A stretch of DNA of 53,501 nt from Thermoplasmatota archaeon (GTDB lineage: Archaea > Thermoplasmatota > E2 > UBA202 > JdFR-43): assembly GCA_038818725.1 (NCBI GenBank), contig JAWAYL010000004.1, positions 1 to 53,501 on the forward strand, written 5' to 3'. The notes under the pieces are model-generated. The model made no database searches. It saw only the letters and a program-made list of their open reading frames with translations, and was not told the DNA's origin. Positions 21,489 to 27,683 of the stretch are shown here, piece by piece (the first letter of the stretch is position 1; each line of letters opens with the position of its first letter). The translations under genes and the position numbers were made by a program.

Positions 21489-21536
21489 ATGTAAATCATT
21501 TTCATTAACTTTATTTATCCAAAAATAATTAAAGAT

Positions 21537-22676
21537 GTGCATCCAAGTGAGAGAATAAAAGGAGAAAAGAGCAAAAAATTATGGAATAAAAAAATTGCCT
21601 TCGGAATCACTGGTAGCATTGCTGCTATTGAATGTGTAAAAATAGCCCACGAGCTTATAAGGCATGGAGCAAATGTTTTTCCAATAATGACAAAAGATGC
21701 TTGCAATATATTGCACCCTGAAGCAATGAAATACGCAACAGGAAATGATGCAATAGTTGAATTGACAGGAAATGTAGAACATGTCTCTCTTGACGCTGAC
21801 TTACTTCTGATTGCTCCATGCACAGCAAACACAATTTCCAAAATTGCAAATGGCATCGCAGATAATGCCCTTACTACTTTTGCTCTTACTTTCGAGAATA
21901 AAATTTTAATTGCCCCTGCAATGCATGAAAAAATGTTTAAAAATAAATTTATTGAGGAAAATATAAGAAAATGCATTGAAAGAGGAATTAAATTTATTTT
22001 CCCTAAAATTGAGGAAGGAAAAGCAAAGATGGCAGGCAATGAAGAAATAGTTGAAACAGTTATAAGAGAGTTAAGAGGAAAAGATAAAGAAGGGAAAAAA
22101 GTACTTGTTATAGGCGGCTCAACATATGAGCCCATAGATGATGTAAGGGTTTTAACAAACCTTTCTTCTGGAAAAATGGCGAGAGCAATTTCAATAGAAG
22201 CATATGAAAGAGGGGCAAATGTTGAAACATGGTTTGGTGGAATAAGTAGCTTCCCTTTTATTCCAAATAAAAGTTTTTTTACAATAAAAGATTTAATAAA
22301 TCTTATTAAAAAAGCAAAAAAATATGATGCAATCATAAATTGTGCAGCAATTTCAGATTTCATTGTAAAAAAAAGAAAAGGAAAAATAGAGAGTGGAAAA
22401 AAATTTAGTATTTCTCTTAATCCTTCTCCAAGAATAAATCCGATGCTTAAGAAAATAGGTAAAGTTGTTATTGGTTTCAAGCTAGAAGATAAAAATATTT
22501 TTGAAAGAGCGCATAAAAGGCTTTTAGAAGACGAGATAGATTATATAATAGGAAATAAAATTAATAGTATAGGAAAAGATTATACGGAGATATGGATAAT
22601 AGGAGAAAAAGGATTAATTGAAAAAGTCAAAGGTAAAAAAGAAGAAATTGCCAAAAATATTGTTGATTTAATATGA
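21537..22676 (+). CDS. coaBC: Bifunctional phosphopantothenoylcysteine decarboxylase/synthase
   Basis: GITGSIAA, HV, APCTANT.SKIA.GIAD, APAMH, GSTYEPIDDVRV.TN.SSGKM and AAISDF. GTG start. Confidence 0.94.
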   Translation: MHPSERIKGEKSKKLWNKKIAFGITGSIAAIECVKIAHELIRHGANVFPIMTKDACNILHPEAMKYATGNDAIVELTGNVEHVSLDADLLLIAPCTANTISKIANGIADNALTTFALTFENKILIAPAMHEKMFKNKFIEENIRKCIERGIKFIFPKIEEGKAKMAGNEEIVETVIRELRGKDKEGKKVLVIGGSTYEPIDDVRVLTNLSSGKMARAISIEAYERGANVETWFGGISSFPFIPNKSFFTIKDLINLIKKAKKYDAIINCAAISDFIVKKRKGKIESGKKFSISLNPSPRINPMLKKIGKVVIGFKLEDKNIFERAHKRLLEDEIDYIIGNKINSIGKDYTEIWIIGEKGLIEKVKGKKEEIAKNIVDLI

Positions 22677-23512
22677 AAGTAATTGCTTTTGCCCCTGCCC
22701 ACATAACAGGTTTTTTTGAAATATTTTTAAAAGAAAATAGTGAAGAAAGTGGTTCAAGAGGAGCAGGATTTTGCCTCTCTCTTGGTAGCTATGCATCAGC
22801 TGAAAAAATTGATAAAAAAAATATAGTAATTGAAGGGAATATTGGAAATGGTGAAGTTACGAAAGTTGCTTTAAAAAAAATTGCAGAAGGAGTGAAGGTG
22901 AGAGTTAAAAATCAACTCCCTTTTTCTCAAGGGTTTGGCATCAGTGCAAGCTCAACACTTTCATCTTGCCTTGCGGCTTCTAAGCTTTTAAAAATTGATC
23001 CATCAAAAGCAATAAAGGCGGCGCATGCGGCTGAAGTAGAAAGTAGAACTGGTCTTGGAGATGTGGTTGCCTCCTCAATTGGAGGAATGGAAATTAGGTT
23101 GAAAGAGGGAGTAAATGGGGTAATAAAGAAGATTGATTTGCATAAGAAAATAATTGTTGCTGTTATTGGTAAAAAAATTCATACAAAAAACATAATAGGA
23201 GACGAAAATAGGAGAGATATTATAAATGATGTTGGAAGAGAATGTTTAAAAAAATTTGTCAGCAAGCCAACTATAGAGAACTTTTTTGATTTGTCTTTTT
23301 ATTTTGCTGAAAATAGCGGGCTTGTAAGTGAAAAAATGAGAAGAATTTTAAAATATGCAAACATAATAGGAAAAGCATCGATGTGCATGATTGGAAATTC
23401 TGTTTTTGCAATTTACAATAGGAAGATTGAAAAATTTCTCTCAAAATATGAAAAATATGTTTGCAATATAGATAATTATGGAGCAAGAATATTAACAACC
23501 TTTTTCCCTTAA
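22673..23512 (+). CDS. pok: Pantoate kinase (archaeal GHMP family)
   Basis: AFAPAHITGFF, GSRGAG, P.SQGFG.SA, AH.AEV...TGLGDV and MIGNSVF. Coupled to coaBC. Confidence 0.9.
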   Translation: MKVIAFAPAHITGFFEIFLKENSEESGSRGAGFCLSLGSYASAEKIDKKNIVIEGNIGNGEVTKVALKKIAEGVKVRVKNQLPFSQGFGISASSTLSSCLAASKLLKIDPSKAIKAAHAAEVESRTGLGDVVASSIGGMEIRLKEGVNGVIKKIDLHKKIIVAVIGKKIHTKNIIGDENRRDIINDVGRECLKKFVSKPTIENFFDLSFYFAENSGLVSEKMRRILKYANIIGKASMCMIGNSVFAIYNRKIEKFLSKYEKYVCNIDNYGARILTTFFP

Positions 23513-23602
23513 ATGTTTTTTAAAGCATTCTTTATGCCAGTACTTGCCATTTTTATAAATTTCATCTTTTTCTATTTCTTTTTTGCAATATGAACATTCC
23601 AT
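23492..23602 (-). CDS. 36-aa zinc-finger microprotein, C-x2-C-x16-H-x2-C (LIM-finger-like)
   Basis: Hand translation MECSYCKKEIEKDEIYKNGKYWHKECFKKHLREKGC*. TTTATAAA box (23622-23629) about 23 nt upstream and host-like codons. Below the ORF-track cutoff. Confidence 0.72.
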   Translation of the reverse strand: MECSYCKKEIEKDEIYKNGKYWHKECFKKHLREKGC

Positions 23603-23629
23603 GCTGATAAATATTTTTGGTTTTATAAA

Positions 23630-25498
23630 TTAAATTGATTCTCTTGTTATAACTGCGATACCTCTTTCAAAATCAATCATTTCTTCTCTATTTAGCATAC
23701 ATTGTCCAACTGCAATAAGCTCGTCCTCCTTATTTACTATCAATGCTTCATCATATGGTCTCAATTGGTTGCAAGCATCTAATACAAATTTTGCAAAAAC
23801 ATTTTTTCCTTTTTTTACAAATGGTATAGCATCATCTGCAATATATACTCTCATTTTTGGTTGACTGAAATGTTTATGCAATATTTTTGCTCCTTCTTTT
23901 TTAAGAGTGAAAAAGCCATCAGACGCACGCATTGAAACAACGTGTTTCCCATCACAGATAACATTCCTTATTTTCCCTGTTTTTTTAGATTTAACTATCT
24001 CTATTTTTCCACTAAAAAGAGCGTTTCCTGCACCTTTTCCAAATTGATAATCAGCAATTGCCTTTATTTTTCTTAAATCAAAATCCCGACTTTTTTTTCC
24101 TGTCTTTTCATACTCAACATATTTTAAATTTTTTAATTTTCTCCATATCTTTGATTTTTCTTTTCTTGCTTCATAATCAAGATTTTCTGGAAAAATTGAT
24201 TGAGCAATTGGATAAATCTCATCAAGTTCTGCGGGAACTAAGCCAAAAGGAGATTCTATAAAAACATTTGCCTCAATTTCCTTTATCCATTCATTTTTAG
24301 TGGAATAGGGTTTTGGCAAATCATCAAAAATTACACTTTCATCAAAAAATGGTGTATATCTTTCAATAATTCTCTTCTGCAATCTATATACTATCGGACG
24401 ATGCATTGAATATTTGCTACTGTATATGAAAGCCCTATCTTTAGATATATTTTCATACCTTTCAAGCCATTTTTTATTTTTCTTCATTATTTCCATCGCT
24501 TCTATTAGCATTGGATGGCATGCTGCTCTTCTTTCAACAACTTCCATAAGATAACCATGTCTTATTGCTTCTCTAATTTTTTTTAATTCATTAAAAGCTT
24601 GTAAAAGATTATGCTTTGCAATAATTCTTTCTCTCTCTTTTCTTTCCATTTTCTTAATTTCATCTGCAGAATATGAATTACAAATCTTACAATTGCAAGG
24701 TATTTCTACCATTTCCTGAAGCTTTTTTGTTCCATCTGGAAATATAAATCTATTGTCCTTGGCATATTTAACATATGATGCAGAGTCAAAGATATCGCAA
24801 CCCAAGGCAACAGCCATTGGAAAAATCAATGGATGACCTGCTCCAAAAAGATGAACAGGCCTTGAAGGAGGAATATATTTTTTACACTCTATTATTATTT
24901 CAGCGAGTTTTTTATATTCTTGATTTTCCATCAGGGGAACAACACCACCTATAGGGTAAATATCTGCTCTTAATTTTGCCATCTCTTTTGAGCATTTTCT
25001 TCTCAAATCTCTGTAAATTCCTCCTTGAATTGTGCATGCAAGCAACATTTCTCCTTTTTCATTTATACTTTCTTTTGCTCTTCTTATTGTTTCCTCTGTC
25101 TCCTTTTTAACAATTTCATATTCTTTTTTTTCTGAAAATATATCAAGAATTGTTCCTATATCACTACCAATTTCTCTCTGAAATTTCAATATTTCAACAG
25201 CATCTATTTTTACTCCATATTTATAAATCTGAAAGGAGCCAGAATCTGTCATTATTGGTTTATTAAACTCAAGCATGGAATGCAAACCTTTCTCAATAGC
25301 TTCTTTTCTCAATTTTTCATCATTGTAGATGATATAAGAATTTGTTATTATGGCATCTGCCATCGGAATTTCATCAATTTTCACTAAATCTATATGAGGA
25401 TTTATCACTGGCAAAAGAGTTGGAGTTAAAATTTTACCATGTTTTGTATGGATTATACCAATTCTCGCAAGTCCATCCCTTGCTTTTATTTCAAACAT
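23630..25498 (-). CDS. tgtA: Archaeosine tRNA-guanine(15) transglycosylase with C-terminal PUA domain
   Basis: MFEIKARDGLARIG, DSGSFQ, HLFGAGHP, FDSASY and CNCKIC...HN zinc site; PUA tail. Real start is ATG 25498, one base after the nrdJ stop. Confidence 0.95.
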   Translation of the reverse strand: MFEIKARDGLARIGIIHTKHGKILTPTLLPVINPHIDLVKIDEIPMADAIITNSYIIYNDEKLRKEAIEKGLHSMLEFNKPIMTDSGSFQIYKYGVKIDAVEILKFQREIGSDIGTILDIFSEKKEYEIVKKETEETIRRAKESINEKGEMLLACTIQGGIYRDLRRKCSKEMAKLRADIYPIGGVVPLMENQEYKKLAEIIIECKKYIPPSRPVHLFGAGHPLIFPMAVALGCDIFDSASYVKYAKDNRFIFPDGTKKLQEMVEIPCNCKICNSYSADEIKKMERKERERIIAKHNLLQAFNELKKIREAIRHGYLMEVVERRAACHPMLIEAMEIMKKNKKWLERYENISKDRAFIYSSKYSMHRPIVYRLQKRIIERYTPFFDESVIFDDLPKPYSTKNEWIKEIEANVFIESPFGLVPAELDEIYPIAQSIFPENLDYEARKEKSKIWRKLKNLKYVEYEKTGKKSRDFDLRKIKAIADYQFGKGAGNALFSGKIEIVKSKKTGKIRNVICDGKHVVSMRASDGFFTLKKEGAKILHKHFSQPKMRVYIADDAIPFVKKGKNVFAKFVLDACNQLRPYDEALIVNKEDELIAVGQCMLNREEMIDFERGIAVITRESI

Positions 25499-25499
25499 T

Positions 25500-27683
25500 T
25501 TATCCACAAGTTGAGTAGCCACAGTGCTTGCATATCCTGCATCCTTCCTCATATATAAGAGGTGAGCCACAATCAGGGCATACCCCTATAGGATATATTT
25601 CCTCTCCTTCTTTTTCTTCAAAATGATCAAGTCTTGGTGTTTCAAAAACCCCCTCACCTTTCACATATTCTTCTATTGCTTTAGCTATTGCATCTGGGCA
25701 AGAGAGAATTTTCATACCCTTCAAAAGATTTGAAGGATTTGGGCATCTTATCAGTTTAAGCTGTTTTATTATTGCCTCTGGCCTTACTCCAGATCGGAGA
25801 CAAAGTGAAACCAACCTTCCTACTGCCTCAAGCTGAGCATCTGCGCATCCCCCTGCTTTCCCCAATCTTGCAAATACTTCAAAAAGCCCTTTCTCATCCT
25901 CATTCATCGTTACATACAGGTTGCCACAACCAGTTGGGAGCTTTCTTGTTATGCCTTTCATTACCGCAGGGCGGGGGCGGGGCATACTCTTTTTTGTTGT
26001 TATTACTTGCTCGGGTCTGCTTCCGAATCTATAAACAGTTATGCCCTTGCATTTCATTTCATAGGCTAGCATATATGCATTTCTTACATCATCAATTGTT
26101 GCATCTTCTCTTAAATTTATTGTTTTTGAAGTAGCATTGTCGACATGTTTTTGAAAAGTGGCTTGCATCATTACATGCCATTCTGGAGGAATATCTAAGG
26201 CGGTTACAAAAATTCGCTGTATCTCTTTTGGGATAGCATCTATGCCTTGAACGGAGCCATTTCTTTCTGCAATTTCTTCAAGCAATTCATTGCTTAAAAA
26301 TCCTTCTTCTTCTGCAATTTTTTTGAAATAAGGATTTATTTCATACAATTTATCATCTTTATCAAGAACATTTCTTGTAAATGAGATTGCAAAAAATGGC
26401 TCAATTCCAGATGAACAGCCAGCAATTATTGAGATGCTACCAGTTGGTGCAATTGTTGTAACTGTTGCATTTCTCATTGCTTCATATTTTCTATAATATA
26501 TGCTCTTTTTAAAATTTGGAAATGAACCGCGATTTTTCCCAAGCTCAATAGAAGCATTCTTTGCTTCTTTCTGTATAAATGACATTATTCTATCAGCTAA
26601 TTTTAAAGCCTTTTCATCCATATAGGAAATATTTAACTGAACAAGCATATCCGCAAAACCCATTATTCCCAGCCCTATTTTTCTGTTGGCAAGCGTCATT
26701 TCTGCAATTTGTGGAATCTGGTATCTATTCATGTCAATTACATTATCAAGAAAATGAACCGCCTTCCATACAACTTCTCTCAATTTTTCCCAATCTATTT
26801 CTCCGTTTTTAACAAATTTTGCAAGATTTATTGAACCAAGATTGCATGATTCGTAAGGCAAAAGAGGTTGCTCTCCACATGGGTTTGTTGCTTCTATTTC
26901 TCCTATTTCAGGTGTAGGATTATGGCGATTTATTTCATCTATGAATATTATTCCTGGCTCTCCTGTTTTCCATGCTTCCTCGACGATTTTATCAAATACC
27001 ATTCTTGCATTGATTTTTTTAACTGCCTTTTTTGTCCTCGGATTTATTAATTCATAATCTTCTCCCTTTTTAACTTTCTCCATAAATTCGTCAGTGACTG
27101 CAACAGAAATATTGAAATTTGTAAGCTCCTGTGGGTTTTCCTTGCAAGTTATGAATTCAAGTATATCTGGATGATCTACTCTAAGAATGCCCATATTGGC
27201 GCCCCTCCTCCTTCCTCCTTGCTTTATTACGTCTGTTGCGGAATTAAAAACTTTCATAAATGAAACCGGACCACTTGCAATTCCTCCTGTACTTTTCACA
27301 ATATCTCCTTTGGGCCTAATACGCGAAAAAGAAAAACCGGTTCCACCACCGCTTTGATGTATTAATGCAGTATATTTTAGAGTTTCAAAAATTTTATCCA
27401 TTGAATCTTCAACTGGCAAAACAAAACAAGCAGAAAGCTGTTGAATATTTGTTCCAGCATTCATTAGAGTTGGAGAATTTGGCAAAAATAACAAATTTGA
27501 CATTATTTCATAAAATTCTTTTTCTGATTTTTTTGCATCCTCCCCATATTTTTCATCAGCAAGCGAAATATTTTTTGCAATCCTATGAAACATTTCTTCT
27601 GGAGTTTCTATAACATTGCCATTCTCATCTTTTTTGAGATATCTTTTTTCTAAAACTTTTATTGCATTTTCAGTGAGTTTCAT
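25500..27683 (-). CDS. nrdJ: Adenosylcobalamin-dependent (class II) ribonucleotide reductase with C-terminal TSCPD-like and zinc-ribbon domains
   Basis: PNSPTLMNAG, LSACFV, GGGTG, RRGANM, TNPCGEQ, CNLGS, IAPTG and SKTIN; C-terminal CPDCG...C..CGYS.C. No ATP cone, no intein. Confidence 0.92.
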   Translation of the reverse strand: MKLTENAIKVLEKRYLKKDENGNVIETPEEMFHRIAKNISLADEKYGEDAKKSEKEFYEIMSNLLFLPNSPTLMNAGTNIQQLSACFVLPVEDSMDKIFETLKYTALIHQSGGGTGFSFSRIRPKGDIVKSTGGIASGPVSFMKVFNSATDVIKQGGRRRGANMGILRVDHPDILEFITCKENPQELTNFNISVAVTDEFMEKVKKGEDYELINPRTKKAVKKINARMVFDKIVEEAWKTGEPGIIFIDEINRHNPTPEIGEIEATNPCGEQPLLPYESCNLGSINLAKFVKNGEIDWEKLREVVWKAVHFLDNVIDMNRYQIPQIAEMTLANRKIGLGIMGFADMLVQLNISYMDEKALKLADRIMSFIQKEAKNASIELGKNRGSFPNFKKSIYYRKYEAMRNATVTTIAPTGSISIIAGCSSGIEPFFAISFTRNVLDKDDKLYEINPYFKKIAEEEGFLSNELLEEIAERNGSVQGIDAIPKEIQRIFVTALDIPPEWHVMMQATFQKHVDNATSKTINLREDATIDDVRNAYMLAYEMKCKGITVYRFGSRPEQVITTKKSMPRPRPAVMKGITRKLPTGCGNLYVTMNEDEKGLFEVFARLGKAGGCADAQLEAVGRLVSLCLRSGVRPEAIIKQLKLIRCPNPSNLLKGMKILSCPDAIAKAIEEYVKGEGVFETPRLDHFEEKEGEEIYPIGVCPDCGSPLIYEEGCRICKHCGYSTCG

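Follow-up and report, generated by a model that had tools for sequence, protein, structure and literature searches.

LIM domains are treated as essentially eukaryotic protein-interaction modules that bind two zinc ions, and the versions so far described from prokaryotes are joined to peptidases. According to the passages of PMC5322733 and PMC4506424 that cite the original work, knowledge of such LIM or LIM-like domains on prokaryotic peptidases dates from Burroughs, Iyer and Aravind 2011 (PMID 21547297). Archaea are also known to possess stand-alone proteins shorter than 70 amino acids (aa) with zinc-binding cysteine motifs, for example HVO_2753 and HVO_0758 of Haloferax volcanii, and according to PMC6562870 and PMC10716476 proteins of this type matter for stress adaptation, biofilm formation and swarming. 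Here we describe a 36-residue protein encoded in a stretch of 53,501 nucleotides (nt) from a Thermoplasmatota archaeon (GenBank assembly GCA_038818725.1, contig JAWAYL010000004.1; the whole stretch is called the window below), which is probably a real, selected, single-zinc microprotein that resembles the first finger of a LIM domain.

The gene was located where a sequence-only reading of the window had placed it, between tgtA and pantoate kinase:

23492..23602, minus strand: coding sequence of the microprotein, stop codon included; it has open orthologues with invariant columns, a ratio of nonsynonymous to synonymous differences (pN/pS) of 0.22, a Pfam LIM score of 26.2 against a cut-off of 22.9 and an AlphaFold2 model with a mean confidence (pLDDT) of 87.9.

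This open reading frame (ORF) is contained in the ORF list of the window and encodes the 36-aa sequence MECSYCKKEIEKDEIYKNGKYWHKECFKKHLREKGC, in which the ligand spacing reads C3-x2-C6-x16-H23-x2-C26. The open frame 5' of M1 holds no other start codon. The gene sits 27 nt downstream of tgtA, which was identified by its Pfam matches to TGT, TGT_C2 and PUA, and converges on a gene of the GHMP-kinase fold that follows dfp and is taken, as in the earlier reading, to be pantoate kinase. The host is a metagenome-assembled genome (MAG) of the Thermoplasmata/Thermoplasmatota, and the earlier description of it as a non-Asgard archaeon was correct.

Orthologues were collected by a six-frame search of related genomes, followed by a family profile that was run over 197 genomes of the class. 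Intact frames of 36-40 aa were found in 26 of the 197, always in one copy per genome, and all of the 26 belong to one order of Thermoplasmata MAGs and represent 10 of the 77 genera of the class. Sequence identity drops with taxonomic distance, from 83-86% in the same genus to 53-78% in the same family and 44-65% in the second family. Invariant are C3, Y5, C6, G19, K20, W22, H23, C26, R32, G35 and C36, and position 27 is always F or L. The spacing between the ligand pairs is x17 instead of x16 in three orthologues. Position 30 is H, W, Y or M, and a second metal site using H30, as suggested earlier, is not supported. Among the related genomes searched no copy with a stop or frameshift was found. 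The proposal of a gene had been made dependent on undisturbed frames and conserved ligands in relatives, and both are present: the frames are open in all 26 genomes and C3, C6, H23 and C26 do not vary.

Selection was estimated over the 28 codons that lie outside the overlap with pantoate kinase. For the orthologues the pooled pS is 0.89, which is saturated, and pN is 0.20, giving a pN/pS of ~0.22 and thus purifying selection across the relatives. Moreover, invariant C, G, I and R residues are encoded by 2-4 different synonymous codons. Because open frames of the same length occur in 26 genomes and are under strong purifying selection, the ORF is more than a chance frame, and 23492..23602 on the minus strand is a real protein-coding gene for a protein of 36 residues.

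The gene order of the window is kept even in the second family. In one genome of this family (G025, locus L039 on G025:C24) tgtA is followed by the peptide and then by pantoate kinase and dfp on the opposite strand; this peptide has a loop that is four residues longer and ends with KSKGC. At the same locus (L039, 3180-3384) a frame of 699-722 aa seems to fuse tgtA with the peptide, but this 'fusion' is an artefact of a run of N in the scaffold. The 156-aa frames of genus g7, which match the peptide weakly, represent an unrelated protein and were likewise discarded.

The likeness to LIM was examined with Pfam, with profile searches and with a predicted structure. The match to Pfam LIM (PF00412, E 1e-5) covers residues 3-28 of the window protein and the first 28 of the 58 positions of the model. 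For 18 of 18 orthologues no other Pfam family scores better than LIM. In six-frame LIM searches 7 of 21 genomes scored over the cut-off, with the others just below it, and a full LIM domain was detected in none of the microprotein-bearing genomes. The family profile matched 31 chains of the PDB, the top 29 of which come without exception from LIM proteins, with finger 1 as the aligned part. MLP (2o13, E 1.8e-5) ranked first, the 31-residue N-terminal module of LASP-1 (1zfo) was also found, and no RING was among the PDB matches at E<10. When the profile was run against 1.84 billion representative proteins it gave 136 matches at E 0.001. Three short full-length matches (clusters) are the microprotein family itself, and ten longer matches that were sampled all contain Pfam LIM: multi-LIM proteins (one of them from Euglena), two LIM proteins with DA1-like peptidases, and proteins with single or spaced fingers. 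In hhalign all 36 columns of the family aligned with one of the LIM+DA1-like proteins (P0040) with a probability of 95.8. AlphaFold2, supplied with the family alignment, predicts a knuckle, a hairpin (14-17, 20-23) and a helix (24-34), and most of the top Foldseek matches of this model in the PDB are LIM domains, with an rmsd of 0.4-1.3 Å over 22-29 aligned columns. Judged by sequence and predicted fold, nothing comes closer to the microprotein than two kinds of finger: the CCHC finger at the N-terminus of LIM domains, and the 'LIM-like' fingers that occur spaced out in bacterial DA1-type peptidases. The assignment as a stand-alone single LIM-type finger, which the sequence-only reading had made from the ligand pattern, is in line with the Pfam score, with the LIM first fingers returned from the PDB and with the ten sampled global matches.

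The global search also brought up other proteins. P0020 (441 aa), P0031, P0078, P0080 and P0132 are metagenomic proteins with up to eight tandem, widely spaced fingers of the type C-P-x-C...GKEWHK-x-C-Y; they are arrays of single LIM-finger-1-like units, and P0020 matches LIM as well as Prok-RING_1. A further protein, P0142 (L064/L065, 4001-4171), has 56 aa with a single CCHC finger (CFYCNKPI...GRYYHKACF) and is a remote match to the family (E 4.6e-4). It adjoins genes for a D12-class DNA methyltransferase (MethyltransfD12) and an HNH protein, and the contigs are dense with small ORFs and have a virus-like look. P0155 (551 aa, member of one protein cluster) turned out to be an unrelated chemoreceptor-like sequence.

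The comparison with eukaryotic LIM proteins shows where the resemblance ends. The pattern of LIM finger 1, C-x2-C-x16-23-H-x2-C with GK-x-WH and a C-F core, is present in the microprotein. With the first fingers of MLP/CRP3 (2O13), CRP1/CRP2 (1CTL and 1CXX), CRIP (1IML) and the LASP-1 N-terminal module (1ZFO) it shares C-x2-C-x16-H-x2-C, the isoleucine after the knuckle, G-K-x-W-H and C-F, and the predicted knuckle-hairpin-helix superposes on finger 1 with the rmsd given above. However, a LIM domain has a second finger (C-x2-C-x16-21-C-x2-C/H/D), which begins two residues after the fourth ligand, and thus eight ligands and two zinc sites, and its next cysteine stands where position 29 of the microprotein is K, Q or E, leaving C36 as the one further cysteine and one predicted zinc site instead of two. 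In addition, the helix of the microprotein runs on for ~10 residues to an invariant Gly-Cys end, and the finger is not a domain of a larger protein but the whole 36-aa protein of one archaeal lineage. Since the second finger is lacking, the microprotein does not qualify as a LIM domain; we class it as a 'half-LIM', a predicted treble clef that resembles LIM finger 1 and would be mononuclear. The LASP-1 module is reportedly an independently folding unit, which makes it plausible that a lone LIM finger 1 can exist as an autonomous protein.

In comparison to the DA1-type proteins (P0040, P0027), which are prokaryotic like the microprotein, the likeness extends further. All 36 columns align to the second finger of P0040, including the helix after H-x2-C and a cysteine at the place of C36. 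In difference to the microprotein, which has no peptidase domain, these proteins have 300-360 aa with a DA1-like peptidase domain and further CxxC pairs, and in P0040 the cysteine opposite C36 opens a further Cys-rich stretch (CCVCC), whereas the microprotein ends there. C(P)XCG motifs presumably form Cys4 zinc-ribbon sites. It is these motifs that the Haloferax volcanii proteins use, in contrast to the predicted C2HC LIM-type treble clef described here, and no sequence relationship to HVO_2753 and HVO_0758 was detected. The microprotein would add a C2HC class to the archaeal zinc-finger micro-proteins, so far mostly Cys4 ribbons. A selected archaeal LIM finger 1 of only 36 residues would show that the half-domain can be a complete functional unit, and studies of zinc binding and of the folding of treble clefs would gain a minimal natural model from it.

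The family had been regarded as hidden and unannotated, which does not hold: the exact sequence is already contained in an NCBI-derived protein collection and relatives are present in GenBank. These relatives are mostly named 'hypothetical protein', but MFO8132673.1 and MGC9308351.1 carry the name 'LIM domain-containing protein', and all of them come from Thermoplasmata/Thermoplasmatota MAGs. Isolate labels such as B78_Guay9, JdFR-43 and HyVt-387 are those of hydrothermal-site MAG series. In the literature collection that was searched, no paper was found that links 'LIM domain' with Thermoplasmata. The family is annotated but not studied, and the stand-alone mononuclear form is a new form of a known type of finger.

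Several observations weigh against the picture of a LIM-finger-1-like protein with a defined function. Six-frame LIM matches above the cut-off also occurred in 1 of 14 control prokaryote genomes, so the Pfam match alone is weak and it is the reciprocal searches that carry the LIM argument. The E-values of Foldseek (at least 0.28) are not significant for so short a chain, and AlphaFold may be biased toward LIM folds. Some orthologues score RING-H2 almost as well as LIM (best E 6.4e-5). One genus of the same family, like a number of further genomes, lacks the microprotein altogether, for example G029, in which tgtA and pantoate kinase converge directly, and because of these absences it is dispensable. 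A DA1-like peptidase (PF12315), which was sought as a partner in trans, had no match over the cut-off in 41 related genomes. Finally, the gene has no consistent partner in its neighbourhood and is found in three unrelated contexts. In one family and one further genus tgtA, or an exonuclease gene (xth), lies upstream and pantoate kinase opposite. In genus g14 (L032 4146-4658; L033, L034, L037, L018, L019) a C_GCAxxG_C_C putative redox-active protein (PF09719, E 3e-19) is encoded ~40 nt downstream on the same strand, with a low-molecular-weight phosphatase/ArsC-like gene opposite. In one genome a formate-tetrahydrofolate ligase gene lies upstream and an M28-like aminopeptidase gene downstream, both named by eye from their translations. 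The pair in genus g14, conserved within this one genus only, might form a unit of two genes and so give a hint of thiol chemistry.

The ligand pattern together with the predicted fold allows a proposal for how the LIM-finger-1-like protein might work. C3 and C6 are predicted to sit on an N-terminal zinc knuckle, and H23 at the end of the hairpin and C26 at the start of the helix would complete one Zn(II) site with them; we infer from this arrangement that a single zinc ion is bound by the four residues. C36 lies ~10 residues down the helix from C26 and is too far away to reach the same zinc, yet it is invariant, so its role may be intermolecular: it might supply a free thiol for contact in a homodimer, with a bridging metal or with a partner protein. 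Cys36 need not be the terminus, because one relative has four residues beyond the equivalent cysteine. Like LIM fingers, the protein as a whole could bind other proteins and act as a small adaptor that is stabilised by zinc. Across the orthologues the net charge varies from -2.4 to +5.5 and the pI from 5.2 to 9.4, which disfavours generic nucleic-acid binding and favours protein binding. The adaptor function combined with this role of C36 is put forward tentatively. A more far-reaching version, in which the microprotein is an autonomous LIM finger 1 that shares ancestry with bacterial and eukaryotic LIM fingers, has survived from a mononuclear stage or was domesticated from a repeat, and uses C36 to complete an intermolecular site, seems unlikely to us; if true, this would be a mode not known for LIM proteins.

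Whether the finger might belong to another family was judged from the competing Pfam scores, all of which rank after LIM and below their own cut-offs in the 18 orthologues (RING-H2, FANCL_C, DUF2175, FCS, TRASH). DUF2175 (PF09943) had been named as the main alternative and consists of archaeal proteins of ~98 aa with a weakly similar N-terminal C2HC-like finger, followed by 60 residues that the microprotein does not have. It aligns residues 2-34 to profile positions 4-38 with 12.9 bits against a cut-off of 25.1, and in none of 21 genomes of this group was it found above the cut-off. RING-H2 (PF13639) reaches 15.3 of 27.3 bits for the window protein: C3/C6 and H23/C26 would correspond to ligands 1, 2, 5 and 6 (site 1) of the eight cross-braced RING-H2 ligands (C3H2C3) and the helix with C-[FL]-x-x-W-L is similar, but RING ligands 3, 4 and 8 are missing. 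For zf-FCS (PF06467) the score is 15.4 against 22.4 bits, and Arc_trans_TRASH (PF08394) matches 3 of 18 members with a best E of 0.024; the third ligand of the microprotein is an invariant His in contrast to the Cys-only TRASH/zf-FCS pattern. A placement in DUF2175, TRASH/FCS or a zinc-ribbon micro-protein family instead of the LIM clade could appeal to the weak E-values of 0.07-0.13 for DUF2175, 0.003-0.017 for zf-FCS and that of Arc_trans_TRASH, but it is highly improbable, as these scores are far under the curated cut-offs and the LIM score, the ligands are C2HC where those of the other families are Cys-only (C2C2 or Cys3), and of the weak genomic DUF2175 matches a frame in G010 proved on translation to be ribosomal protein L24e, another coincides with the peptide, and a 65-aa frame from G008 stayed without an assignment. 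More serious is convergence, that is a lineage-specific CCHC treble clef without shared ancestry with LIM, in which the core positions (I after the knuckle, GK-x-WH, C-F) agree with those of LIM finger 1 because the fold demands them. The similarity is limited to ~26-36 residues, the family is confined to one order whose microprotein-bearing genomes have no full LIM domain, and RING-H2, FANCL_C and PHD also match weakly. Against this, the match is reciprocal and specific for LIM, with the top 29 PDB matches and ten of ten sampled global matches being LIM proteins and no RING at E<10, and the likeness includes non-ligand positions and, to the DA1-type LIM-like finger, the whole helix to C36. 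We regard convergence as a possible but clearly less favoured explanation, and over 36 residues the present data do not discriminate between it and homology. A relic ancestor, a surviving mononuclear precursor of the binuclear LIM domain, would be mononuclear and autonomous just as the microprotein is. Burroughs and co-workers are said to have argued that mononuclear forms were generally the source of binuclear treble clefs. The microprotein, for its part, is restricted to 10 of 77 genera of one class, in a single order, with three short clusters among the 1.84 billion representatives; it is absent from other Thermoplasmata, no member from Asgard or other archaea turned up in the global search, and it was lost repeatedly. 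For a related case, the binuclear FYVE finger, a reviewer's comment printed with PMC4506424 refers to Burroughs et al. 2011 for its derivation from a mononuclear form through a LIM-like intermediate, and this comment speaks for such a route. All in all a relic is very unlikely, and the ancestral LIM-like module that the earlier reading had contemplated finds no support because the family is too narrowly distributed. For the same reason the family has no bearing on how eukaryotic LIM domains originated. Its confinement to one order, together with several losses, is what a lineage-specific gain would produce. Such a gain could have come about in two ways: a LIM-like repeat was transferred from bacteria and truncated, or the finger emerged independently.

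A different kind of explanation concerns the function. As in GATA-type treble clefs the helix with K24, K28, K29, R32 and K34 could contact DNA or RNA, be it tRNA together with the archaeosine transglycosylase or DNA as a small transcription regulator. The helix is indeed rich in Lys/Arg with an invariant R32, in several genera tgtA is the gene immediately upstream, and there is weak non-LIM likeness to zinc-binding ribosomal proteins, namely to L24e in sequence and to small 40S-subunit proteins such as uS14 in the predicted fold. The variable net charge argues against this function, and the adjacency to tgtA is broken by an exonuclease gene or absent in other genera with the peptide unchanged, and some genomes have tgtA without the peptide. 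A nucleic-acid binder is rather doubtful. That the ORF is not a gene at all, but a chance frame or the reflection of conservation in the 3' region of tgtA, in the terminator of pantoate kinase or in an RNA element, is close to negligible. It would have to rest on the small size of 36 codons at a genomic G+C content of 33%, on the overlap with the 3' end of pantoate kinase and on a weak Rfam match to RT-6 RNA at 23463-23527 on the minus strand, across the convergent overlap. This match (E 0.11; 19.5 bits, where the gathering score is 46.7) is regarded as chance, and the frame has a constant length in 26 genomes, its synonymous sites are saturated with the amino acids conserved, and the protein is conserved in three unrelated genomic contexts.

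Around the gene of the LIM-finger-1-like microprotein the following further features were found:

23622..23629, minus strand: TATA-like box TTTATAAA, starting 27 nt before the ATG and directly after the tgtA stop.
23492..23512, both strands: convergent antisense overlap of 21 nt with pantoate kinase, in which the last six codons plus stop of the microprotein (LREKGC, stop) face the kinase tail (LTTFFP, stop).
23430..23455, minus strand: oligo-T runs at 23455-23451, 23446-23443 and 23434-23430, 37-62 nt after the stop and inside the pantoate kinase 3' end.

The box had been described as standing at the same spacing as in other operon-head genes of the window, and this was confirmed, with -27 for the microprotein and starts at -24 to -30 in ten others. 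At the orthologous loci a TATA-like box is present at -25..-29 in 18 of 20 compared to a background of 3-5%, counts in which the loci are not independent of each other and the intergenic DNA is AT-rich, which makes the nominal P value too optimistic. The conserved box is also found where the upstream gene is the exonuclease or a divergent nadA. Because the distance of the box is fixed across the loci, the microprotein gene probably has its own promoter, from which it would be transcribed as a leaderless or near-leaderless mRNA.

For the 3' end the earlier reading had counted the 21-nt overlap as matching every other convergent junction of the window. The overlap is exactly 21 nt here and tight convergence is typical, but 21 is not a general value, as the other convergent junctions overlap or abut by 0-23 nt (8, 6, 6, 12, 4, 18, 0, 23). 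In 15 of 20 orthologous loci the overlap is identical, codon for codon in antisense. At loci L001-L016 pantoate kinase ends with the five residues [AT]xF[FL]P, the antisense of REKGC and stop, only where it overlaps the microprotein, and without the overlap it ends near ARIL or ARLI. The peptide retains its GC end directly before the stop also in non-overlapping loci (L005, L017-L019, L032-L037). Since GC is kept without the overlap and the kinase tail is present only with it, the C-terminus of the peptide is itself under selection. The tail of the kinase has the look of a by-product of overprinting on the 3' end of the peptide gene. The conserved 21-nt overlap illustrates clearly, on a small scale, how overprinting occurs where convergent genes end. 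The oligo-T runs are candidate archaeal termination signals, as we infer from their position. A scan of the region for bacterial-type hairpin terminators gave none, and scans for bacterial-type promoters and terminators are uninformative for an archaeon.

Further observations were made on the neighbouring genes. In its longest form the tgtA ORF begins with GTG at 25570 and reaches into the ribonucleotide reductase gene upstream of it (window 25496-25570). Because its relatives align only from residue 25 (MFEIKARDG), translation of tgtA probably begins at the ATG at 25498, a single base past the stop codon of the reductase (25500-25502), and this start would make reductase and tgtA a tight tandem. 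The ribonucleotide reductase has a Cys-rich C-terminal tail, CPDCGSPLIYEEGCRICKHCGYSTCG (window 25500-25580, minus strand), which is probably a zinc ribbon. On the other side of the locus an ORF of 321 aa (21515-22480, minus strand) lies antisense to dfp (21537-22676, plus strand) and is most likely a shadow ORF that results from the purine-rich codon usage at 33% G+C.

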